Shown in pieces: positions 17,229-35,792 of a stretch of 35,792 nucleotides of DNA. The notes under the pieces were generated by a model. That model worked only from the letters and a program-made list of their open reading frames with translations, did not search any database and was not told the DNA's origin. The DNA lies in the IMG/VR virus record IMGVR_UViG_3300033406_000366, positions 1 through 35,792 of that record; one strand, given 5' to 3'. The number at the start of each line of letters is the position of its first letter. The first letter of the stretch is position 1. The translations under genes were made by a program, and so were the position numbers. This stretch comes from a virus (lineage: Duplodnaviria; Caudoviricetes).

Positions 17229-19322
17229 ATGGCGTTTAATAAGGCCGATTATCGCGACACGATCGAACGCCTGACGGCGACCTGGTCGGGCGCCTGGAAA
17301 GCCTGGGGCGATCGAGTGGCCAATGAGATCGAATTCCTGCTGGCTGCCGGCGAACCGGTCGAGGATGCCATTACTGCGGCCATGAATGGCGTACCGGACA
17401 ATATCGCTGCAGCTACCAGGGCGGCCGTCGTCAACGCTGCGGCCGCTGGCTTTGGGATCAAGCCGGCCGAGATCGGCGTCGAGCAAAAGGCGGCGATTGT
17501 CAACAAGCTAAACACGACGCCCTGGGCGCCGGATCGAATGATCCTGTCAGATCGCCTTCACCGGCTGCCGCCGATTATGAAGGACGTTATCAGTCACACG
17601 ATCACGCAGCAAATGAAGGCAGGAACGAACTGGATCGACCTATCGCGGCAGCTTTACGAAGGTTATGGCTACGGCAGCAAGATCCGCAAGGCAGACCTGC
17701 CGCCTTACCTGGACAAAATACAACAGGCCGCGCGGCACAACCTGACGCCGGAGGACTTCGCGGCCTTCCGCAAGGACCTGGCTGCAGCGCGCCGCATGGT
17801 TGACCGCCTAGGCGCAAACGACGCGCCGAATGTCGCCTTAAAGGCAGCCTATCAGAAATTGCTGAAAGCGGCTGAAACCGGCAGCGACAAGGCCCTGAAA
17901 ACAGCGATTGACGTCGCCGTCAACGAAAAGGCCCGCTATCACGCGGAACGGATCGCCAGGACCGAGATCGCCCGCGCCTGGGCCGACGGCTTTTTCACGC
18001 AGAACCAAAACGATCCGGACGTTATCGCCTACCGTTGGCGACTGTCCAGCCGGCACCTGACGCCGGATATATGCGACGTACACGCGAAAGCGGACCTGTT
18101 CGGCCTGGGGCCTGGAACGTACCCGAAAGACCGCGTCCCGCCGCAACCGTCGCACCCGCATTGCACCTGCCACTTTGAGCAGGTTTTTCAGGGCGAACTG
18201 GACGGCCTGACGCCGATCTACCGGCCGGACTTTTTGGAGGCGCGCGGGCGAATGTTTTTTCGATCGCTGGATCCGGACGTCGCCAGGAAGATCATCGGCG
18301 AGGACGGCATGAAGGCCGTTTCACTAGGTCAGGACTGGCGGCCACACCTGCCAGGCTGGCAAGGACACGAAAATCCGGCCGCGCGATTGAAACCGGCCGA
18401 CTTTGTCAAATCGACGCCGCCGGCCATTCCGACGCCGCCGCCGGCACCAAAACCGAAACCGGTACCACAACCGGCGCCGCAACCAAAACAAGCGCCGCAA
18501 CCGGTCAAAAATGATATACTGAAAGCAGAACCATATAAACCAGTAAACAACGTCAAAAAGGCGACGGAATGGGCGAAAAACAACCTGCCAATAGATTTTG
18601 TCGAATTCAAAGGATATGCGCCGGAATTGGCCGACAAGGCGAACGCTTTGTTCCAAAAGCTATATCAGCGTTATCCAGAAATGATTGGCCGGACGAAATT
18701 CCTGGGAACCGGCCAGGAACGAAACCGGCAATATCTGGACCGCGTCGTTCAGGAAAGCATTGACGCCTATATCGCGGCGCATACCGGCAAGCAATTACCT
18801 TTCACAATAGACCAATATCGCCAGGCGGCTAAAAAGCGACTGAAACCGAAAAACATACCGGCCAACGTATTCGCGCAAAGCAGCAACAAGTCCTGGAAAG
18901 CGCAGGAAGGGATCGCCTTTAATGAAAATTGGTCAAAAGACATAAGTAAACTAACGACGGCGACAGAACGCTGCGTGAATTCTGGCTTTCATCCGTTAGG
19001 AACAGACGATCCCGTCAGTATTGTTACGCACGAATTCGGCCATCAAATCGACAACTTGATTATCGAAAACAACCTTCGCAAAGAACTAGACAACCTATGG
19101 GATCAATGGTCAAAGGAAAACCTAAACCACCGGAAAAACGGTTATCACACCTTCCGGCAGGACACGTTGAGCGAATACGCCAGCAAAACATCGGCTGAAT
19201 TCATCGCGGAAGGTTTTGCCGAGTATATCCACAATCCGACACCGCGCCCATGGGCGCAGAAGATCGGTCAAGCGATCGAAAACGCCTTTGTTCAGATCCG
19301 AGCGAAAGGAGGGCAACCATGA
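17229..19322 (+). CDS. MuF/SPP1 gp7-like minor head protein with C-terminal zinc metallopeptidase extension
   Basis: AERIARTEIARA, YRWRLS..H...DICD and P.HPHCTC MuF motifs; Pro-rich linker; THEFGHQID...SEYA....EFIAEGFAEY. Confidence 0.85.
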   Translation: MAFNKADYRDTIERLTATWSGAWKAWGDRVANEIEFLLAAGEPVEDAITAAMNGVPDNIAAATRAAVVNAAAAGFGIKPAEIGVEQKAAIVNKLNTTPWAPDRMILSDRLHRLPPIMKDVISHTITQQMKAGTNWIDLSRQLYEGYGYGSKIRKADLPPYLDKIQQAARHNLTPEDFAAFRKDLAAARRMVDRLGANDAPNVALKAAYQKLLKAAETGSDKALKTAIDVAVNEKARYHAERIARTEIARAWADGFFTQNQNDPDVIAYRWRLSSRHLTPDICDVHAKADLFGLGPGTYPKDRVPPQPSHPHCTCHFEQVFQGELDGLTPIYRPDFLEARGRMFFRSLDPDVARKIIGEDGMKAVSLGQDWRPHLPGWQGHENPAARLKPADFVKSTPPAIPTPPPAPKPKPVPQPAPQPKQAPQPVKNDILKAEPYKPVNNVKKATEWAKNNLPIDFVEFKGYAPELADKANALFQKLYQRYPEMIGRTKFLGTGQERNRQYLDRVVQESIDAYIAAHTGKQLPFTIDQYRQAAKKRLKPKNIPANVFAQSSNKSWKAQEGIAFNENWSKDISKLTTATERCVNSGFHPLGTDDPVSIVTHEFGHQIDNLIIENNLRKELDNLWDQWSKENLNHRKNGYHTFRQDTLSEYASKTSAEFIAEGFAEYIHNPTPRPWAQKIGQAIENAFVQIRAKGGQP

Positions 19323-24991: not shown

Positions 24992-27694
24992 TTGGCGAAT
25001 AACATTGATATTCTAATCAACGCCCACGATAACGCGACGGCAGCGATCAAGCGCGTCGGTTCCGCCTTTACTGACATTGCCCGCCAGGCGGCCGGCTTTA
25101 CCCTGGCAACGGCCGGAATGGCCGGTCTGTCCGCAATCGCCGAAAAGGCCGGCGCCGCGTTTATCGGCTATAATGCCAAGATGGAACAAACCCGCGTCAG
25201 CATGGAAACCATGCTTGGCAGCGCCGAGGCCGCACAGACCTTTATCGCGCAGATGGCCGACTTTGCCGAGAAAACGCCGTTCGAATTCAAAGACGTCAGC
25301 GACGCGGCAAAACGCTTTCTGGCGTTTGGCTTTGCGGCAAATGAAATCATTCCGACCTTGACGGCCGTCGGCAACGCAGCGGCCGGCCTGGGGATCGGCA
25401 AGGAGGGGATCGACCGCGTCACGTTGGCCCTGGGGCAAATGAGCATTAAGGCCAAGCTGTCCGGCGAGGAAGTCATGCAGCTAAACGAGGCCGGCATCGG
25501 CGCGCAGAAGTATCTTGCTGACGCCTTCAACCTGACCGGCGACGCCTTTAACGATCTATCAAAAACGGGGATTACCGGCGCCCAGGCCGTCAAGGCAATC
25601 GTCGACGGCATGGCCAACGATCCGAAATTCAAAGATATGATGGAAAAGCAAAGCAAGACGGCGATCGGCCTATGGTCAACCATGAAAGACCAGGCATCAA
25701 CGATCTTCGGCGCGCTTGGACAAACGGCCTTCGAAGGCATGAAGGGCGCAATGGAAAGCATCACAGGCGGCCTGTCTGACCTGGTGAAGAAGATCCGCGA
25801 GGGCGGCGTCGAAAAGGCGTTTCGTGAAATGGTACCGGAGGAATGGCAGGTCCGCATTGAAAAGATTTTCAACTATGTCGCGAGTTATTACGAGAGTTTT
25901 ATCCAGATCCTTTCCCAAGGATCCGAAGGCGGATCAAACGCCCTGGCGCTGTTGGGTACCGCGATCGACATTTTAATTCCCGTCTTTCAGGCGTTGGGCG
26001 AGGTTGCTTTATTTATTATCGACGTAATGGTCGGATCCTTTAATAATGCAATGGCCGTATGTCGGCAATTTGTCGACGATATAACGACCGGCTTTACGGA
26101 GTTATACGACAGCACAATCGGGATCTTTACGTCGCTAGGATCGGCCATGGAATGGATCTGGGACAATATCGGCGCGTCGATCGTCCAGAAGGTTAAAGAC
26201 TTTGTGTATGGGATCCTGGACGCCCTGGGACCGATTGGCCAGATCGTCAAAGGCGTCGGCGACGCGATCGAAAGCGCCTGGGGCAAAGCGTCGGCCGGTC
26301 CGCGCATCACAACCGGCGGCAGCGCGTTTTCAAGCTTTATCGGCGGCATGAAGGGCCAGGGCGGCGTCACACAGGCCGGCCTTGACGCCCTGGCGGGCCA
26401 TGCCGGATCGAAAATGAACCTGGAACCAGGCGACAGCGGCAGCGGATCCGGATCCGGCGATAAGTCCGAGCGGCGCCTGGAACGGTCCGAAGAAAAAATG
26501 CGGGATCTAGTCGCCGACCTGACGACCAAGATCGCCGAGGACACGCAGGACGCCCTCACGGCCAACCTGGCGAAGATGGCCGCCGAGGTCGAAAAATGGC
26601 AGGGCGATATTAACGAGGCGGCCGGCAACGGCGCCGACGTCACGGCCGCACAAAAGGCCCTTGACGATTACAAAAATGTTCATGAGGCCAAGATCCGCGA
26701 CGACATTAAAAAGACGCAGGACGCCCTGATCCGCGACACCCGCAGCATCAACGCCGACCTGGTCCAAGATTACCGGCAGGCAGCGGATCAAAAATATCAA
26801 ATTGCCGTCGAGGCCGCACAAGCGGAGGCCGTCGAAAAACGGAAGGCCGGCATGAGCGAGGCGGCCGTCAATGATTGGTTAACGGCCAAAACGGCCGAGG
26901 CCGCGCAGCAGCGCCGCGACGCCCTGGCGTCCGGACTGGAAACCGAATACACGGACGAGCTGCAGCACATTAATAATATCGCGGTCTTGGAGGGAAAAAA
27001 CACGGCCTGGATCGAGCAGCAGACGCGGATCGTCTTAGAGACCAAAATCAACGCCTTGAAGGCCGAACTGGCCGCTGCCGAAACCACAGCCGAACGCCGG
27101 AAGGCCATCGAAAAAGAAATCGCCGACGCAACCGGCCAAATCAACACCGCAAACCGCCATAGTCTTTCAACGGCCTGGAAAGAGGCGTCGAAGGACATTC
27201 AAAACACGCAAATGGATTATGCGACGCGCATCAAACAGTCATGGGACGAAATTTCAACGTCGATCCATGACAACCTATCCGATATTCTAAACGGAACGCA
27301 ATCGCTAGGCGACGGCATGAAGGCCATTTTTAGCGATATTAGCCAGAGTATCACGCAAATGTTTCTTGACATGGCGATCGAGCAGCTTGTCATGGCACCG
27401 CTGCGAAACTGGTTTTCTGGCGTTCTTAGACGCATCAGTGGCAATATTGGCGGACATAACGCCCTGGGCGGCCGCACTTTCGGCGGGACACCTTACGTCG
27501 TCGGTGAACACGGGCCGGAGATTTTTACGCCGGACCAAAACGGCCAGATCAGTCCAAACGGCGCCCTAGCAGCAGGAGGATCGCCAATTAATATGTATAT
27601 CACAACGCCGGACATCGGCAGTTTTAGGCGATCGCGGGGGCAGGTTTTATCCGAACTGAATTTAGCCATGCGCGGCGCGGGGAGGTTAATGTAA
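24992..27694 (+). CDS. Tape measure protein
   Basis: 900 aa, Ala/Gly-rich helical; FAEKTPFEF and ALGQM...KLSGEEVMQLNE tape-measure motifs; C-terminal VVGEHGPEIF. Confidence 0.92.
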   Translation: MANNIDILINAHDNATAAIKRVGSAFTDIARQAAGFTLATAGMAGLSAIAEKAGAAFIGYNAKMEQTRVSMETMLGSAEAAQTFIAQMADFAEKTPFEFKDVSDAAKRFLAFGFAANEIIPTLTAVGNAAAGLGIGKEGIDRVTLALGQMSIKAKLSGEEVMQLNEAGIGAQKYLADAFNLTGDAFNDLSKTGITGAQAVKAIVDGMANDPKFKDMMEKQSKTAIGLWSTMKDQASTIFGALGQTAFEGMKGAMESITGGLSDLVKKIREGGVEKAFREMVPEEWQVRIEKIFNYVASYYESFIQILSQGSEGGSNALALLGTAIDILIPVFQALGEVALFIIDVMVGSFNNAMAVCRQFVDDITTGFTELYDSTIGIFTSLGSAMEWIWDNIGASIVQKVKDFVYGILDALGPIGQIVKGVGDAIESAWGKASAGPRITTGGSAFSSFIGGMKGQGGVTQAGLDALAGHAGSKMNLEPGDSGSGSGSGDKSERRLERSEEKMRDLVADLTTKIAEDTQDALTANLAKMAAEVEKWQGDINEAAGNGADVTAAQKALDDYKNVHEAKIRDDIKKTQDALIRDTRSINADLVQDYRQAADQKYQIAVEAAQAEAVEKRKAGMSEAAVNDWLTAKTAEAAQQRRDALASGLETEYTDELQHINNIAVLEGKNTAWIEQQTRIVLETKINALKAELAAAETTAERRKAIEKEIADATGQINTANRHSLSTAWKEASKDIQNTQMDYATRIKQSWDEISTSIHDNLSDILNGTQSLGDGMKAIFSDISQSITQMFLDMAIEQLVMAPLRNWFSGVLRRISGNIGGHNALGGRTFGGTPYVVGEHGPEIFTPDQNGQISPNGALAAGGSPINMYITTPDIGSFRRSRGQVLSELNLAMRGAGRLM

Positions 27695-28302
27695 TGGCAG
27701 CAGCGTTTCACGAAGTCCTTTTCCCTGTCGATATATCCTACGGCGCCAGCGGCGGGCCGGAGTATTCGACCGACCTGGTCAAGACGGCCAGCGGCGGCGA
27801 AACTAGAAACCAAAATTGGGAATACCCGCTGCACAAGTACGACGTCGGCCACAATGTGAAAACGCGCGAACAGATTATGAAACTAAGCGCGTTTTTTCGC
27901 GGCCGCAAGGGCAAAGCGTTTGGTTTTCGGTTCAAGGATTGGATCGACTACGCAGCGACCGGCCAATATTTAGGCACCGGCGACGGCGCAACGGCAACCT
28001 ATCAACTGATAAAAAAATACACCGACGACGGCGGCTATTCGGAAACCAGGAAAATCACAAAGCCGGTCAACGGTACCGTGAAGGTTTATCTTGACGACGT
28101 ACTGCAGATAGCTGGTTATACGGTCGACTATGCGACGGGGATAGTCACGTTTGATGTTGCGCCAGCGGCCGGCGTTATTGTCACGGCAGACTTTGAGTTT
28201 GACGTCCCTTGCCGGTTCGACACGGACGGCATGACGGCCAGCATTGACAATTATAATGTGTTTTCCTGGGCGAGTATTCCGATCGTTGAAATTAAGGTTT
28301 AA
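27694..28302 (+). CDS. Distal tail protein, DUF2460/TIGR02217 family (RcGTA g12-like)
   Basis: FHEVLFP.DISYGASGGPEYST, FRFKDWID, RKITKPV.GTV and FEFDVPCRFDTD. Confidence 0.9.
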   Translation: MAAAFHEVLFPVDISYGASGGPEYSTDLVKTASGGETRNQNWEYPLHKYDVGHNVKTREQIMKLSAFFRGRKGKAFGFRFKDWIDYAATGQYLGTGDGATATYQLIKKYTDDGGYSETRKITKPVNGTVKVYLDDVLQIAGYTVDYATGIVTFDVAPAAGVIVTADFEFDVPCRFDTDGMTASIDNYNVFSWASIPIVEIKV

Positions 28303-28316
28303 GGAGGGGAAGAATT

Positions 28317-29750
28317 TTGTCTTATCTTTGGTATAGCGCGGGGCTGCGAAAAGATTTTGATATTTATGGTAATTTCGTTGGACAAAACACGGGACACCGA
28401 ACCGGTTTTTATGTTGGTGGAAATGTGGGTGACAATGCGTATAAAGTTTTACCCGAAACAGGAACAGAATTCTGGGCGTCGTCATACCGTGGCCTGAATA
28501 TCTCGTCAAATGGCGACGCGCTTCAGCTACGCGGCACAGACAACACAACAGTATTGGCATACATAACCGTTGTTAGCGGTTATGTGAAAGCATATGCTTC
28601 TGTTGGCGGAACATTAACTCTATTAGCAACCGGAACAACTGTTTTACAATCATCATCGTTTCACCAAATCGAATATCATTATAAACGGCATTCGACCGAT
28701 GGTATTTTCGAAGTATGGGTTGACGGTATTTTAGAAATATCTTTTTCGGGAAACACGGGCAGCGAAGCAACTGTGATAGGATGTTTTGCACATTCACAAA
28801 TCGCTAATGGCAACACGGCGAACGTTGGTTCGTCCGAATTTATTGTCACAAATAAAGGTCGAATCGGGAAAAAGCGAATGCAAATCCTTTATTTATCCGG
28901 ATCGGGAGACACAAACACAACAGACGGATTTATGGACGTGATCGGCAATGATACAACAACAACATCAACTACCGTCAAAACAGGAACCTATATTCTCCCG
29001 TCCGCGATAAAAGCGTCCGGAACATTAAAAACAGTCGCGTTTAATCTATACGCAGCAGATACAGTCAAAATCGGAGTTTTTACTAAAAATGCGTCTGCCG
29101 TAAAATTCACACCGGACGCAACACGACAGGCGTCTGTCGCTTGTTTAGCTGGCGCCGTGACGCTGAACGCCGGCACAGATTTTACAGAATGGGCCGTTGC
29201 CGCTGGCGAATACATCGGGATTTATACGACTGCTGGAAAATTAATTTACACGGCAACGTCGAATAATGGCGACGATCTGAATTTAGGTTCGGCCTATTAT
29301 ATTTCTGGCGACGCCTTCGCGCTAGGAACAGAACAAAGTTATTCCACCGACGGCAGCGGTAATTTTATTCGCGCCTTTGCTCAATATTTAACAGCAACAA
29401 ACCTAATGTATTTATACAACGGAAATTCTAATGTAATCACAGAAAGGCCGTGGCTTGAAAGCAAACGGTATGTGTCTATGAGCGCGAACGGACAAGAATT
29501 TTTAAATAGCTGCACCGACTTGACCGATGGCGAATGCACCGCTGTCAATGCGCTAAAAATAACCTTGCGCGGCGAGGCTGGAACGACTATTACTAACGGG
29601 CAAACTTGTATTAAGGCAGGCGGATCGGTAACGTATAGTGACACAATTGCAATGCCAACTGTAATAAACCAGCGGCACACAATTTTCGACGGTACTTGGT
29701 CGAAAGCGCAAATAAACGCCCTGCAGATCGGGTTTAAGGCTTTAACATAA
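28317..29750 (+). CDS. Putative receptor-binding/lectin-like tail protein (lower-GC insert)
   Basis: Thr/Gly/Ser-rich beta protein; FHQIEYHY....DGIFEVWVDG ConA/LamG-like segment; TTG start after AAGGAGG. Confidence 0.65.
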   Translation: MSYLWYSAGLRKDFDIYGNFVGQNTGHRTGFYVGGNVGDNAYKVLPETGTEFWASSYRGLNISSNGDALQLRGTDNTTVLAYITVVSGYVKAYASVGGTLTLLATGTTVLQSSSFHQIEYHYKRHSTDGIFEVWVDGILEISFSGNTGSEATVIGCFAHSQIANGNTANVGSSEFIVTNKGRIGKKRMQILYLSGSGDTNTTDGFMDVIGNDTTTTSTTVKTGTYILPSAIKASGTLKTVAFNLYAADTVKIGVFTKNASAVKFTPDATRQASVACLAGAVTLNAGTDFTEWAVAAGEYIGIYTTAGKLIYTATSNNGDDLNLGSAYYISGDAFALGTEQSYSTDGSGNFIRAFAQYLTATNLMYLYNGNSNVITERPWLESKRYVSMSANGQEFLNSCTDLTDGECTAVNALKITLRGEAGTTITNGQTCIKAGGSVTYSDTIAMPTVINQRHTIFDGTWSKAQINALQIGFKALT

Positions 29751-30823
29751 TGGGCGCTGAAAAATATTCTTATAATCCATTCATAACATCACTATATGAA
29801 AAAAACTTGGAACGGGCGCCGTCAGCATTTGTTACGGCACTATACGGAACGGACATATTAAAGTCCGAAGGCGCGGCAATCGAATTTATTACGCCAATAT
29901 TTGACGTAGTCGATCAGTCGAGCGTACAAACGGCGTTTGTTACTGCACTTTTTACCGAACACCCTTTCCCTTGGCTGTGCGATCCCGTGACGGCGATTGC
30001 CTGGAATTACCGCCTGGAACTGACTGACGGGACGGTTTTCGGCTTTACGAGCCACGACCAGGATCTTGTCATCGACGGCCTGACCTATGAGGCAAACGCC
30101 GGTTTTTCGCCGACGGCCGTCGAAACGAGCAACAATCTAGCAACCGACAACATGGAACTAGAAGGCGTCATGGATAGCACGCGCATTGATCCGGCCGACA
30201 TTATGGCCGGACGGTTCGATCATGCTAAAATCACCGTTTTCCTTTGCAACTGGAAAAACCTATCGGATCCCATGCTGACGGTCCGCAAGGGATTTATCGG
30301 CGAAATCAAATACGGACCGAACCGGTACCAAACTGAGGCGCTAGGATTGACCACGGCGCTGCAACAAGACGCCGGCGAACTGTATCAAAAAATCTGCCGC
30401 GCCGATCTGGGGGATAGTAAATGTCAGGTCAATATGACGGCGCTAACCGTTTCCGGTACCGTCGCGAACGTCTATTCTGACGCCTATTTTTCGACGGATC
30501 TGGCGCAAGCGGACGCCTTTTTCGACTATGGCAATCTGACGTTTACTAGCGGCAATAACAACGGCCGCAAATGCGAGGTCAAGGCGTATGCTGACGGCGA
30601 AGTCAAACTGTTTATCAAAGCGCCGCAATCGGTCCAGATCGGCGACACGTTCACGATTGCGGCCGGCTGCGATCGCAATTTTTCGACCTGCCGCGACCGG
30701 TTCGCGAACCAGGTCAATTTTCGCGGCGAGCCGTCGGTCCCTGGCAACGATTACGCCAGCGGCTACGCGGCCAAAGGGACGGTAAACGTCGTCAGCAGCG
30801 GCACCAGCCCGAAACTAGGATAA
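29750..30823 (+). CDS. Baseplate hub, DUF2163/BR0599 family (RcGTA g13-like), with N-terminal extension
   Basis: DGTVFGFTSHDQDL, CRADLGDSKC and AGCDRNFSTCRDRFAN.VNFRGEP with four conserved Cys. Confidence 0.9.
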   Translation: MGAEKYSYNPFITSLYEKNLERAPSAFVTALYGTDILKSEGAAIEFITPIFDVVDQSSVQTAFVTALFTEHPFPWLCDPVTAIAWNYRLELTDGTVFGFTSHDQDLVIDGLTYEANAGFSPTAVETSNNLATDNMELEGVMDSTRIDPADIMAGRFDHAKITVFLCNWKNLSDPMLTVRKGFIGEIKYGPNRYQTEALGLTTALQQDAGELYQKICRADLGDSKCQVNMTALTVSGTVANVYSDAYFSTDLAQADAFFDYGNLTFTSGNNNGRKCEVKAYADGEVKLFIKAPQSVQIGDTFTIAAGCDRNFSTCRDRFANQVNFRGEPSVPGNDYASGYAAKGTVNVVSSGTSPKLG

Positions 30824-30836
30824 AGGAGGCCTATCT

Positions 30837-31271
30837 ATGACAATCAAACGCGACACGATCGTCGCGATCGCACGGTCCTGGATCGGGACGAAGTGGCAGC
30901 ACCAGGCCAGTCTGAAAGGCGTCGCGACCGATTGCGTCGGCCTGGCGCGCGGGGTATACGCCGAGGCAACCGGCCAGGAGATCGTCGGAACCTGGGACTA
31001 TCCGGCGACCTGGCACCTGTTCAAAAGTGACGAGCGCATGATCGCGGAACTAAAAAACTACGCGACCGAGATCGACAAGGCGGACGCGCTGCCTGGGGAT
31101 CTGTTGATTTTCGGCTTTGGCAAAGGACCGGCGCACCATATCGGCATACTGGCGACGCCGGAAACCTTCGTTCACGCCTGGGCCGACGTCGGCCAAGTCG
31201 CCGAAACGCGCCTGGACGCCTTTTGGACGAAGAACCTGCGGACGGCCTTCCGGCTGCCGGAGGTCGACTAA
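30837..31271 (+). CDS. NlpC/P60 tail peptidase (RcGTA g14-like)
   Basis: ARSWIGTKWQHQAS.KGVATDCVGL.RGV, HIGI and FVHA. Confidence 0.92.
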   Translation: MTIKRDTIVAIARSWIGTKWQHQASLKGVATDCVGLARGVYAEATGQEIVGTWDYPATWHLFKSDERMIAELKNYATEIDKADALPGDLLIFGFGKGPAHHIGILATPETFVHAWADVGQVAETRLDAFWTKNLRTAFRLPEVD

Positions 31272-33553
31272 TGGCGACGCTGGCCGTTTCAATGTATCTG
31301 GCGGCAAATCCTATGTCATATCTGGCAATGGGGTTAATGTATGCCGGCGCCAGTTATATCGACGCGAAACTGTTCCCAGGCCCGAACGTCGACAGCGGCA
31401 AATTAAGCGATCTAAACATTCAAGTATCAACCTACGGCAATCCAATTTCCCGCGCTTACGGTACCATTCAGACGGCGGGGAATATTGTCTGGGGAACCAA
31501 TTTTGTCGAACATAAGAAGAAATCCGGCGGCAAGGGCGGCGGAGGCGGGACGGTTACAAGCTATACCTATTCCGTCAGTTTTGCCGTGATGATCTGCAAG
31601 GGGCCGATCAGCGGGATCGGCCGGATCTGGGCCGACGGGAAATTATTTGCCGATCTGACCGGACAAACTTTTGCCGACGGAACGATTACTGGCGAATACG
31701 AAGGCAACGGCGGCGGGACCTTTACCGTTTATCAGGGTACCGAAACGCAATTACCGGACGCCTTCATGGAGGGAATCGAGGGCGCTGGCAACGTGCCGGC
31801 CTATCGACCGTATGCATATGTGGTTTTTAAGGATCTGTACGTCACCGACTTCGGGCAGCGGATCCCGACGTTCACCTTTGAAATTATTTCACCGGTCAGC
31901 GCGGTCGACGCGATCGTCCGCGAGATCTGCACCGAGGCTGGCCTGGCGGAAAGCGATTTTGACGTCACGGATTTAAGCGGAAGCGCAATCACCGGCTATT
32001 TAACGGATGGCGGCAAAACCCACCGCGCGAAAATCGAACCGCTGCAAAGCGTTATTGTATTCGATGGCGTCGAGAGAAACGGTAAATTAACTTTTTTGCG
32101 ACGTAAAAATAATCTGTTGTCTGTAATGGTCTACGCATTAGACGAAAGTGAATTATCCGCCTATGAAAATGACAAGGGCGAACAGGAGGCGTTCGCGGCC
32201 ACCAGGACGCCCGAACAGGAATTGCCGGCGCGTGTCGTCTATGCGTACCTGTCGAAAGATCGTGAATATCAGACTAATGCCATGGGCGCCAACCGGCTGA
32301 ACACGACAAGCAAGAATTCCAAAAAGGTCGACCTGCCCGTCGTTTTGACCGACAGCGAAGGAAAAACCCTGGCCGAAACGGCGCTATATGCCGCCTGGAA
32401 CGCGCGGACAAGCTACGAACTGAAACTGGCGACGAAGTACGCCTGCCTGTTCCCTGGCGACCTGGTCAAGCTGCCGATCCCGAACGCGAGCGAAATTTTC
32501 CTGTATGCGAATAAAAATTCATACGGCAAACCAGGGATCACAACGATCACGGCCGAAACTGTCGACGTCGAAACTTACGACCGGAAGATCCGGACCGCCG
32601 ACGCCAGCCATGTGCAAACCTTTCCGGATCCACCGACGGCAATCACGGCGCATTTTCTGGACCTGTTCTACAAATACGGTGACACCGACGAAACACCGCT
32701 ATATGTCACGACAACGGCGGCGCGGTTCATCGACGCGAATATTTTCCGCAGCCACGACGACGGCCTGACCTGGGAATATGTCGCAACGAGCAACGCCAAC
32801 GCAGAGGCCGGCGCAGCCGCGACGGTCCTGGCAGCCGGTCCGGTCGACTTCTTCGACGAGGCCAACACGGTTGACGTTGTACTACTCCAAGGGACTTTGT
32901 CGAGCCGGTCCGAGGCGGATATCCTGAACGGATATAATGCCGCCCTGATCGGCGACGAAATTCTGCAATTCAAAACGGCGACGCTAATCGCCGCCAATAC
33001 TTACCGCCTTTCCGGTCTGCTGCGCGGGCGCAATGGCACCGAAAGCCTGGTCGGATCCCACGCGATCGGCGACCGGTTTATTTTGCTATCGAGCGAAAAC
33101 CTGGTCAAGCTGCCGACGTCGACGGCCGACTGGTTCCATCCGGTCCAGTACCGGATCGGGCCGTCAGTCTGTGCGATCACTAGCGACTATTATTCAACCG
33201 TCAGTTATACGAGCGACGGCACCGTCGCGAAACCGTTCGCTCCCTGCCACCTGACCGGATCACGCGACGGCAGCGGCAACCTGACAATCAACTGGATCCG
33301 CCGTAGCCGCAAGGATTTTTCCTGGCAACCGTATGTTGACGCGGCTTTGAGTGAAGGATCTGAACGGTACGAAATCGACGTCTATAACGGCGCGGCCGTC
33401 GTCCGGACGATCAGCGCGACGGCATCAACGGCCGTCTATACGGCGGCGCAACAGACGGCCGACTTTGGCAGCGCCCAGGCAAGCGTCAACGTAAAAATTT
33501 ATCAATTATCCGATATTCGCGGCCGAGGCTGGCCGGCAGAGGGGGCAATATAA
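31271..33553 (+). CDS. Central tail tip protein (RcGTA g15/megatron-like, shorter)
   Basis: STYG.PI.RAYGT...AGNIVW, YSVSFAV..C.GPI.GIGRIWADGK, PAYR..AYVVF, LSGLLRG.NGTE and WIRRSR. Confidence 0.88.
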   Translation: MATLAVSMYLAANPMSYLAMGLMYAGASYIDAKLFPGPNVDSGKLSDLNIQVSTYGNPISRAYGTIQTAGNIVWGTNFVEHKKKSGGKGGGGGTVTSYTYSVSFAVMICKGPISGIGRIWADGKLFADLTGQTFADGTITGEYEGNGGGTFTVYQGTETQLPDAFMEGIEGAGNVPAYRPYAYVVFKDLYVTDFGQRIPTFTFEIISPVSAVDAIVREICTEAGLAESDFDVTDLSGSAITGYLTDGGKTHRAKIEPLQSVIVFDGVERNGKLTFLRRKNNLLSVMVYALDESELSAYENDKGEQEAFAATRTPEQELPARVVYAYLSKDREYQTNAMGANRLNTTSKNSKKVDLPVVLTDSEGKTLAETALYAAWNARTSYELKLATKYACLFPGDLVKLPIPNASEIFLYANKNSYGKPGITTITAETVDVETYDRKIRTADASHVQTFPDPPTAITAHFLDLFYKYGDTDETPLYVTTTAARFIDANIFRSHDDGLTWEYVATSNANAEAGAAATVLAAGPVDFFDEANTVDVVLLQGTLSSRSEADILNGYNAALIGDEILQFKTATLIAANTYRLSGLLRGRNGTESLVGSHAIGDRFILLSSENLVKLPTSTADWFHPVQYRIGPSVCAITSDYYSTVSYTSDGTVAKPFAPCHLTGSRDGSGNLTINWIRRSRKDFSWQPYVDAALSEGSERYEIDVYNGAAVVRTISATASTAVYTAAQQTADFGSAQASVNVKIYQLSDIRGRGWPAEGAI

Positions 33554-34095
33554 TGGCAGATACGCCGAGACTGATTTTTCCGTATTTATCAACCAACCAG
33601 GCGCAAAAGGAAACCACCCACAACCAGGCATTAAACAAACTGGACGCCATGGTCCAGACGGCCGTCGAAAGCATGACCTTGACCACGCCGCCGACCGGCG
33701 TCGAAGGCAATTTGTATATCGTAGGCACCGGCGCGACGGGCGCCTGGGCCAGTAAAGACAAATACCTGGCGCAATATATCGGCGGGGCCTGGGCCTTTTA
33801 TACGCCGTTCGAAGGTCTACGGATCTACGACAAGGCCACGACGACCGGCATGGTCTACAAATCGGCTGTCTGGGTACAAGAGGACACGGCCCGCGCGAAG
33901 ATCGGATTTTTCGGATCCACGCCGGCGACGAAAACGACCGTCACCATGACCAATACCGACGGCGCGATCGGCGGCCTGACCATCAGCGCGACCTACACAC
34001 AGGCCGAGATCGTCGCGCTGCGTGACGGTACCGAAACCCTGGCCGACGACGTCCGCGCGATCAAGACGGCCCTGTCGTCCTACGGGATCATTTAA
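33553..34095 (+). CDS. DUF2793-domain short tail fibre-like protein
   Basis: TPRL..PYL...QAQKE.THNQAL..LD and YIVG.GATGAWA. Confidence 0.85.
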   Translation: MADTPRLIFPYLSTNQAQKETTHNQALNKLDAMVQTAVESMTLTTPPTGVEGNLYIVGTGATGAWASKDKYLAQYIGGAWAFYTPFEGLRIYDKATTTGMVYKSAVWVQEDTARAKIGFFGSTPATKTTVTMTNTDGAIGGLTISATYTQAEIVALRDGTETLADDVRAIKTALSSYGII

Positions 34096-34123
34096 CAAAA
34101 ATACAGTTTCAAAAGGGGGTAAA

Positions 34124-34582
34124 ATGAACTATTCAAGCCTTGAAATCAATGTCGGCGTAATCTGCGCCGCCCTGGGATCGTTTTTTTGCGTCGCCGTCGG
34201 CGGCTTTGACGTCCCTGTAAAAAGCCTGCTGGCGCTAATCATAACGGACTACGTCAGCGGCGTATATGCCGCCTGGCGGACCGGAACACTAAGCAGCGGC
34301 GCCGCGTTTATCGGTATTCGGCGCAAGTTATTTATTGTCGCCGTCGTTGTTTTTGGCAATATGCTGGACGGCGCAATGGGCCTGGATCATACCTTCCGGA
34401 CAATGATCGTCTGCGGTTACGCCGGCATGGAAGGATTGTCAATCGTCGAGAATGTCGATCGCATGGGGTACGGCCAATATATCCCGTCCTATTTGCGCGA
34501 CAAACTACTGCAGCTACGCCAGGAAAAGGAGGGCGCCGTCAATGCAAATAGTGAACCTGGCCGAAGTCAAACGGGCGGCTGA
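34124..34582 (+). CDS. Phage holin
   Basis: DYVSGV..A, GI.RK, EGLSIVEN and IP.YL.DKL.QL motifs with hydrophobic helices; start at ATG 34124. Confidence 0.9.
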   Translation: MNYSSLEINVGVICAALGSFFCVAVGGFDVPVKSLLALIITDYVSGVYAAWRTGTLSSGAAFIGIRRKLFIVAVVVFGNMLDGAMGLDHTFRTMIVCGYAGMEGLSIVENVDRMGYGQYIPSYLRDKLLQLRQEKEGAVNANSEPGRSQTGG

Positions 34583-35108
34583 ACAGGCCCGCGATCGGAT
34601 CGCCGAACTGGCGGCCGGCTGCGATCGGCCGGTCCGGATCTTCTTCCATTGGACGGCCGGCCACTATCGGCAATACTTCGACGATTATCATTTTAACATT
34701 GACCAGGACGGGGCGATCGTCGCCACGACCGGCGACCTGGCCGAAGTCAAAGCGCACACCTGGCGGCGCAACACCGGCGCGATCGGCGTCGGCCTTTGTT
34801 GCGCCTACCAGGCCAGATCCGTCGACGACCTGGGGCCAGAGCCGCCAACGGCGCAGCAAGTCGACGCAGCGGCCCAGGCTGCGGCCGTCCTTTGCATGGT
34901 CTGGGATCTACCGGTCGACGGATATCACGTTTTGACACATTCGGAGGCCGCCGACCTGGACGGTTACGGCCCGAAATCGACAAGCTGCGAACGATGGGAC
35001 CTGTACGTTATCGCGGCCGGCGATCCGCCGGACAGCGGCGGGGATCTGCTGCGGGCGGCGATCATGGAACATATCAGCAGCGGAAAGTTAAACTGGTTGT
35101 TTAACTAG
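34542..35108 (+). CDS. Endolysin, N-acetylmuramoyl-L-alanine amidase (Amidase_2-like), catalytic domain only
   Basis: HWTAG, YHFNID.DG, AHTWRRNTGAIGV and VLTHSE; AAGGAGG RBS before ATG 34542. Confidence 0.9.
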   Translation: MQIVNLAEVKRAAEQARDRIAELAAGCDRPVRIFFHWTAGHYRQYFDDYHFNIDQDGAIVATTGDLAEVKAHTWRRNTGAIGVGLCCAYQARSVDDLGPEPPTAQQVDAAAQAAAVLCMVWDLPVDGYHVLTHSEAADLDGYGPKSTSCERWDLYVIAAGDPPDSGGDLLRAAIMEHISSGKLNWLFN

Positions 35109-35195
35109 ACCGCTAAAACGTCACCAGGCGGTCAGAATGGCATCAAATTCGCGAGAAGCGGCCGCCTGGTACAAATAGAGAAAGGGGCAAACGAA

Positions 35196-35792
35196 ATGGA
35201 TCAAAACAAAACGCTGCGCGTCGGCCTGATCGCGGCGCTTATTCTTTTTCTGATCGGCTTTGCAGCCGGCGCGTTTTTCTGGGACCGATACGAGGCCGCC
35301 GGCCAGCGGTCCGCCCTGGTCGACGCGCTGAATAAGGCGCCGATCATAACGACGGTACAGGGCGCGACGGAAACGAAAACCGAGATCGCCTATGTCCCGA
35401 AGGAAATCATCAAGTACATTGACGCCAGCGGCCAGGAAGTCGCCGCGCCGGAAAAGACGGATCTGGACGTCCGGATCGCAAAACCGGACTTTATTGTCAA
35501 CGTCAACGGCCAGCAGCAAACATTCGCCAGGGCCGACAATGAAAACTATTTATTCGATAAAAACAAGATCCTTTTCGACCAGTCCAGCAAAATCATTATC
35601 ACGGTCGACGATAGCGCAATGATCGCCGCCCTGGCGAAAGCGCAGCAGAAACACTTTTCGGCCGGCGTCGATCGGATCGGCAGCAGCACGACGGCCGGCG
35701 TCGGTTATTCGCCAAACAATACGATCGACTATAAAATTCATAAAGAAATAGCCGGCGACAAAATCGGCGCCGGCCTTTGGATCCGTTTCTAA
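35196..35792 (+). CDS. Lysis-cassette membrane protein with N-terminal TM helix and C-terminal outer-membrane-type beta strands (candidate spanin analogue)
   Basis: Hydrophobic residues ~9-29, no Cys; C-terminus HFSAGV/TAGVGYS/IDYKIH/IGAGLWIRF ending in Phe. The CDS is well supported; the function is inferred. Confidence 0.6.
   Translation: MDQNKTLRVGLIAALILFLIGFAAGAFFWDRYEAAGQRSALVDALNKAPIITTVQGATETKTEIAYVPKEIIKYIDASGQEVAAPEKTDLDVRIAKPDFIVNVNGQQQTFARADNENYLFDKNKILFDQSSKIIITVDDSAMIAALAKAQQKHFSAGVDRIGSSTTAGVGYSPNNTIDYKIHKEIAGDKIGAGLWIRF

Follow-up and report, generated by a model that had tools for sequence, protein, structure and literature searches.

A candidate single-chain, lipoprotein-free spanin in phages of double-membraned Firmicutes

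The last gene of a prophage-like viral record encodes a 198-residue protein, P0001, for which we favour, as a reasonably likely reading, a role as a single-chain, lipoprotein-free spanin of reversed polarity. In this reading, an inner-membrane helix, a beta-rich stalk and an oligomeric beta anchor would join the two host membranes and collapse after removal of the wall. To our knowledge, all described spanins depend on an outer-membrane lipoprotein, and Negativicutes are reportedly unable to deliver one, raising the question of how their phages breach the outer membrane. The P0001 family supplies named, testable candidates for this step in a group for which Veillonella parvula offers a genetic model.

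The third lysis gene and its protein family

The window, by which we mean the whole stretch of DNA analysed (35,792 nt), is a complete prophage-like record that opens with a serine recombinase (1-1548), continues with packaging, head and tail genes and closes with a lysis cassette. The features of the cassette and of its third gene are as follows.

34124..34582 (+): holin (Phage_holin_4_1; PF05105, E 3.4e-26; phrog_199 holin)
34542..35108 (+): endolysin, N-acetylmuramoyl-L-alanine amidase (PF01510, E 5.4e-11)
35181..35187 (+): ribosome-binding site of the third gene, AAAGGGG, 8 nt before the ATG
35196..35792 (+): third lysis gene, P0001, 198 aa, candidate single-chain lipid-free spanin (open reading frame, family, genome comparison)
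35220..35282 (+): hydrophobic helix, residues 9-29, with conserved G21-x-x-x-G25 and an aromatic end; predicted uncleaved inner-membrane anchor (alignment, AlphaFold2)
35337..35612 (+): conserved beta-rich stalk, residues 48-139, predicted periplasmic (alignment, AlphaFold2)
35613..35642 (+): short helix, residues 140-149, a variable linker and not a conserved YadA-type pore helix (AlphaFold2, alignment)
35655..35789 (+): four Gly-rich amphipathic strands and the terminal Phe; predicted outer-membrane anchor (AlphaFold2, hhalign, alignment)

A preliminary description of the window had placed this frame third in a holin–endolysin cassette, and this stands. The gene starts at 35196, after an 87-nt gap from the end of the amidase gene (35108), and its stop codon forms the last three bases of the record (35792); a lipobox pattern scan of the entire window up to that position revealed no open reading frame for an Rz1-like lipoprotein. 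No embedded partner was found within the gene, where the longest stretch in another frame is 90 aa and carries no signal, and promoter and terminator scans of 33900-35792 gave results at about chance level. Elsewhere in the window, the tail module (27694-34095) matches DUF2460, phiJL001 gp84, NlpC/P60, Rcc01698-like and DUF2793 proteins and resembles gene-transfer-agent or alphaproteobacterial types, whereas the host suggested by the lysis genes belongs to the Negativicutes. A 697-aa head morphogenesis-like protein (17229-19322) has weak Phage_Mu_F and zinc-peptidase-like matches, all under the cut-off (among them ATLF, E 0.0014, and Peptidase_M90, E 0.0016).

Neither Pfam nor NCBIfam names P0001. 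A search with the single protein gave 8 matches, the profile of these gave 359, and a 62-sequence profile defined an unnamed family of 223 clusters at 50% identity; lengths among the 150 best cover 67-235 aa. Our alignment (A3) has 145 rows: 118 profile matches, with 17 short and 9 broken-looking ones dropped, and 27 earlier proteins. A tblastn search of 50,697 GenBank phage records with a relative as query returned zero matches, sequence searches of the PDB gave no credible match, and a literature search with limited coverage of subscription journals turned up no published account of such a family. At one locus (L143:1774-2388), the start of an amidase is fused in frame to a family protein, apparently through a deletion.

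P0001 contains no cysteine and ends in Phe. A first monomer model based on 62 sequences was poor (pLDDT 60); with 145 sequences, AlphaFold2 (mean pLDDT 76, pTM 0.34) predicts a helix (3-47), two beta hairpins, a second helix (140-149) and four strands (154-161, 164-174, 177-182 and 192-197). Sequence and model together bear out the hydrophobic helix, the four C-terminal strands, the terminal Phe and the lack of Cys given in the preliminary description. The extended monomer, a form that cannot test the fold, had zero Foldseek matches in the PDB and BFVD at E<=0.001, and VIA-align returned long-helix matches only (Z<=5.5). Conservation extends over the whole chain: G21 and G25 are kept at the end of the helix, and in the stalk T62, Y66, K69, D89, N104, E116 and F120 are at least 90% conserved in the 145-row alignment, E116 being invariant.

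BamA substrates carry a C-terminal aromatic residue, typically a terminal Phe, and a last strand of alternating hydrophobicity. The same pattern is seen in the alignment of 145 family members. The C-terminal residue is Phe in 112 and aromatic in 121 of the 145, and large hydrophobic residues occupy positions -1, -3 and -5 in 88, 85 and 76% of members, compared with 93, 93 and 71% of 14 OmpM-like controls; judged from the sequences, the Phe and aromatic features are beyond chance. An ending of the form G-x-x-hydrophobic-x-hydrophobic, which we take to be the beta-signal pattern, occurs in 85/145. The last residue is not aromatic in 24/145; a large clade (QFPIMK) ends in Lys or Arg, and in five members (L133, L138, L140, L148 and L249) the strands are replaced by a Gly-rich hydrophobic tail. 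Lipobox-like patterns occur in 12/145 members, always inside the hydrophobic helix.

The proposal that the C-terminus has the layout of a YadA anchor holds in part. The four strands and the terminal aromatic residue stand, and the strands align weakly: against five YadA anchors from Negativicutes-type hosts, hhalign paired the family profile one to one over the strands only, with probabilities of 20% and 48%. The Ala/Gly helix, however, is not conserved. Only one member of 145, P0001 itself, has at least five Ala/Gly in the 16-residue stretch that precedes strand 1, and Pro occurs in this stretch in 121/145, whereas the best 16-residue window of five real YadA anchors holds 7-10 Ala/Gly. The strand domain is also shorter (median 45 aa in the family versus 57 aa in one YadA anchor), and PF03895, the YadA anchor model, has no Pfam match to P0001 or to the family.

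At the other end of the protein, the helix is probably an uncleaved inner-membrane anchor, as had been supposed. Under a permissive cleavage rule of our own, an SPase-I-like site follows the helix in 33/145 members compared with 13/14 OmpM-like controls, which come from five genomes and include paralogues. On a hydrophobicity scale, the family helix is the more hydrophobic (median -0.37 versus +1.92). One site in P0001 satisfies the permissive rule, though few helices of the family are as hydrophobic as that of P0001 (-2.95).

Host range and genomic context

The family profile matches 60/401 genomes of the class of G001 (Sporomusaceae) at E<=1e-5, 57 of them at <1e-10, and one of 399 scored genomes (two unscored) of the class of G005 (labelled Eubacteriales); we read these classes as Negativicutes and Clostridia. 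The single match in the second class comes from G005 itself and lies on a contig of 35 kb that also carries phage head genes. Forty genomes with weak matches (E > 1e-5) were rejected as spurious, most of them representing an N-terminal helix inside frames of 369-378 aa. Named genome matches comprise one Sporomusaceae, four Phascolarctobacterium, two metagenome-assembled genomes labelled Alphaproteobacteria and one labelled Eubacteriales. Phage-sized contigs carry the family genes in two of the genomes with the latter labels (L038 in G002 and L044 in G005), and misbinning is the likely explanation of both labels. By these sequence searches, the family is confined almost wholly to double-membraned Firmicutes. 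Relatives of the window's endolysin occur in 82/201 Negativicutes genomes and 1/201 Clostridia genomes, which supports the diderm-Firmicute host assumed earlier; from this sequence evidence, the host of the prophage appears to be a member of the Negativicutes.

The premise that Negativicutes do without the Lol route agrees with published statements (in passages of PMC5491611, PMC10665443 and PMC13018214) and with our searches, in which Omp85 was found and LolA was not matched in all three Negativicutes genomes tested (G001, G003 and G004). Within the same sources, PMC5491611 calls its own lipoprotein data inconclusive, and PMC13018214 predicts one outer-membrane lipoprotein, SonB.

We sorted by hand 90 of the 92 genome loci above the weak group, leaving out one duplicate and one partial locus. 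At 39 of them, the family gene lies at most two genes from a wall hydrolase or holin named by Pfam, and a further 4 loci have it beside a putative one; the linked endolysins belong to five Pfam classes (Amidase_2, Amidase_3, GH25, M15 and glucosaminidase). The rest comprise 3 loci among packaging genes, 24 solo genes among housekeeping genes, 14 unclear or decayed loci and 6 contig ends. Among 36 viral loci, the neighbours of 14 were scanned with Pfam, and here the gene follows the endolysin in most distinct lineages; in a Phascolarctobacterium-type phage clade it lies among packaging or head genes. The proposed link to lysis genes is thereby supported, and the stricter idea that homologues are confined to lysis cassettes is not, given the solo copies and this phage clade.

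Other occupants of the third slot and host-borne copies

Our sample of 70 holin loci, made up of the 30 best and another 40 from those listed next, came to 69 once a duplicate was removed; 52 of these, counted as independent, have an endolysin. In these 52, the slot after the endolysin holds a sister family (B) at 20 loci, an overlapped two-frame pair at 12, a small helical protein at 11, a P0001-family gene at 1 and nothing recognised at 8. The first three types are located as follows.

L223:1589-2215, L246:1279-1932, L194:2423-3034 and 17 more: sister family B (phrog_10797), with an N-terminal helix, a part-helical stalk and four strands
L209, L220, L228, L238, L241, L243, L245, L247, L248, L250, L251 and L252: fully overlapped two-frame pairs, after the endolysin
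L213:1283-1764, L219:2008-2301 and 9 more: small helical proteins of 55-100 aa with no membrane helix (phrog_18996), after the endolysin

Family B, which fills the third slot more often than any other type in our sample, has the same two predicted anchors as the P0001 family (hhalign against A3, 89%). It was absent from the five Phascolarctobacterium-type records, three of which have a holin and an M15 endolysin followed by no recognised third gene. In all 12 pairs checked, which belong to other Negativicutes cassettes, the two frames overlap fully, in the layout of Rz/Rz1. The first encodes an N-terminal helix and a coiled coil, with weak matches to Rz-like PHROGs in 2 of 6 tested (E 9e-5 and 0.006); its partner has a signal-peptide-like start, a coiled coil and, as its ending, a hydrophobic tail, which in L251 is replaced by four strands with a final Phe. 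A pattern scan showed no lipobox in the partners, and the pairs are, on sequence, candidate lipid-free two-component spanins. The small helical proteins, which occur at loci with no visible spanning protein, are possibly membrane-disrupting peptides.

Two membrane-spanning types never occur together in the 52 holin–endolysin loci, and a second spanning type was seen at 0/134 P0001-family loci, the search seeds having been taken from those same loci. Moreover, the same two endings, four strands or a hydrophobic tail, alternate both in the P0001 family and in the partner of the overlapped pair. This exclusivity of the slot and this swapping of endings form our strongest comparative argument that the C-terminus of P0001 is an outer-membrane anchor and that the protein probably works like a spanin.

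The 24 solo host genes fall into four clades amid lysis-linked members, and phage copies behind endolysins fall inside the largest, mostly host-borne QFPIMK clade; these clades come from a quick unrooted tree of 98 rows with long branches, from which the direction of transfer is not readable. Two copies (L157:6149-6781 in G090, and L149) lie directly upstream of genes that, by inspection, resemble ftsA-ftsZ-spoIIGA-sigE. A motif, GTTTAA-N14-GGAATGTA, lies directly upstream of 11/24 solo copies with 0-2 mismatches, the other 13 being without it. With zero mismatches it precedes, in four genomes, the following cassette.

L153:9914-11750 (G086), also L105, L107 and L126: four-gene host cassette of a small membrane protein, a holin-like protein, an Amidase_3 and a family gene

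By inspection, no phage genes lie in the 20 kb around the G086 cassette; the other three cassettes were viewed over 4 kb only. The motif also precedes a lone amidase in G028, and 2 of 14 additional amidase loci have it as well; in six genomes it stands before a DUF1659-like gene (sigma factor, DUF1659 and DUF2922 were confirmed for L091). Exact matches number 0-4 per genome, compared with 0-2 for reversed controls, and the window's own cassette is not preceded by the motif (best match, 4 mismatches). The DUF1659/DUF2922 pair sroAB of S. aureus is a direct transcription target of SigS, as stated in 10.1101/2022.10.19.512975. We infer that a SigS-like sigma factor reads the motif and that its regulon lyses cells. 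Because solo copies, a phage-free cassette, lone amidases and a SigS-like locus have the motif in common, the sequences suggest a host self-lysis programme under SigS-like control, for which some Sporomusaceae-like hosts would appear to retain copies. A reading of the motif as a sporulation sigma site is not supported: passages of PMC3789822 give no matching consensus, and the motif goes instead with the sigma locus of DUF1659/DUF2922. Several solo copies (L065, L068, L069, L073-L076 and L079) have upstream of them a second element, of the CATAnnnT type, that resembles in sequence the -10 boxes of mother-cell sigma factors.

These observations lead us to a broader and more tentative idea, which may be correct but in which we place less trust than in the reading of P0001 itself: that Lol-less diderm Firmicutes possess a lipid-free spanin toolkit of their own, made of interchangeable parts, with the single-chain form also serving, beside holins and amidases, in a SigS-like self-lysis regulon of Sporomusaceae-like hosts. 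The parts meant are, on the one hand, bridges of a single chain type whose oligomeric barrel is assembled by BamA and, on the other, overlapped pairs in the Rz/Rz1 style, in which the C-terminus of the partner serves as its anchor.

Proposed mechanism, alternatives and known systems

Gene position, family range and slot-sharing with Rz/Rz1-style pairs are direct observations; the membrane steps, which we infer, would run as follows. Sec would insert the helix with its N-terminus inside, and the remainder of the chain would enter the periplasm. BamA would then recognise the terminal Phe as a signal and insert the strands, with several chains contributing to each barrel; three chains, hence twelve strands, is our guess, and four are also possible. 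The segment between the anchors measures 84-146 aa across the family, and the beta-rich stalk of P0001, which might extend to about 29 nm (a rough maximum), would cross the wall and be caged by it; the periplasm of V. parvula is given as 24.2 nm in PMC10665443. Once the amidase has removed the wall, the stalks could cluster and collapse, pulling the membranes together and fusing or tearing them, by analogy with lambda Rz/Rz1 and T1 gp11.

The C-terminal end admits two other readings. P0001 could be a lysis protein anchored in one membrane only, either i-spanin-like, its C-terminal sheet being soluble and gripping an outer-membrane protein of the host, or itself an outer-membrane protein after cleavage. 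The short strands, the weak YadA match and the possible cleavage site in P0001 and 33/145 members all speak for this, but the other 112 members have no such site, 121/145 end in Phe or another aromatic residue with OmpM-like alternation at -1, -3 and -5, and the four-strand end also caps the signal-peptide partner of the overlapped pair L251; we think it unlikely. A still more improbable variant, the least probable of those weighed here, makes the protein a fusogen, its C-terminus not pre-inserted by BamA but plunging into the outer membrane like a viral fusion peptide once the wall is gone. Gly makes up 16% of the last 45 residues compared with 4% elsewhere, five members have a Gly-rich hydrophobic tail instead of strands, and the QFPIMK clade does without the terminal aromatic residue. 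Against this, most members keep strictly the terminal Phe that marks BamA substrates, and both kinds of ending, tail and strands, might be permanent anchors.

A non-lytic envelope protein (a membrane tether, a superinfection block or a stress protein), which phages carry as cargo in the last position of the late operon, would account for the solo host copies (24, spread over four clades, with one copy directly upstream of ftsA-ftsZ-spoIIGA-sigE-like genes) and for the phage clade that carries the gene away from lysis genes; moreover, holin–amidase or holin–endolysin pairs can serve non-lytic export (on record in PMC9527704). Yet the gene stands behind five unrelated endolysin classes, alternates in its slot with Rz/Rz1-style pairs, shares a motif with amidases and the holin cassette in its host-borne form, and, for the phage copies inside the mostly host-borne QFPIMK clade, sits once more after endolysins. 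We regard this account as doubtful, less so than the fusogen and more so than anchorage in a single membrane. If the spanin reading is right, a beta-anchored, reverse-polarity protein would imply that membrane fusion requires just two anchors and a collapsible stalk, and spore-forming diderms would, through the host-borne cassettes, gain a self-lysis programme.

Among known systems, the T1 gp11 u-spanin (PMC6139136) has much in common with P0001: it too is a single gene ending the lysis cassette, with a beta-rich periplasmic part, and P0001 likewise has no periplasmic Cys and is predicted to join both membranes. In contrast to gp11, P0001 has no N-terminal lipoprotein signal, lacking Cys altogether, and no C-terminal inner-membrane helix, ending instead in four strands, with a hydrophobic tail in five relatives only. 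Its polarity is opposite, the membrane helix being N-terminal and the predicted beta anchor C-terminal. Passages of PMC6139136 (Kongari et al. 2018) allow that an outer-membrane protein could act as an o-spanin, outside the criteria used there, and a 2025 survey describes filtering spanins by lipobox and helix (PMC12596118). With lambda Rz/Rz1, P0001 shares an Rz-like N-terminal inner-membrane helix and the slot after the endolysin (passages of PMC6139136 and PMC13123898); it has neither the embedded lipoprotein partner nor the coiled-coil stalk, its own stalk being beta-rich. The YadA trimeric autotransporter anchor (PF03895) resembles the family in its four C-terminal strands per chain and terminal aromatic residue, whereas the family has no conserved Ala/Gly pore helix, shorter strands and a stalk predicted to be periplasmic and tied to the inner membrane. 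As P0001 departs from the defining features of gp11-type spanins, Rz/Rz1 and YadA anchors, we file it under none of them.

Among sequence collections, PHROG 37316, to which no function is assigned there, overlaps the family (E 2e-50 for the tail-bearing member L133 and weakly for other members; P0001 itself, E 0.056), and the nearest named Atlas neighbours are Pfam DUF6808 clusters (score 0.91-0.92 on 15% of members), which we note as a lead. The closest precedent for the proposed topology in the host group is V. parvula MlaD, which, by fractionation as described in PMC10665443, joins both membranes through an N-terminal helix and a C-terminal barrel. MlaD and P0001 (the latter by prediction) thus share an N-terminal inner-membrane helix and a C-terminal outer-membrane barrel in a Lol-less class. 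They differ in that MlaD has an MCE domain, for which Pfam gave no match in the P0001 family, a helical tunnel and, in each chain, a complete barrel of ten strands, and serves in lipid transport.
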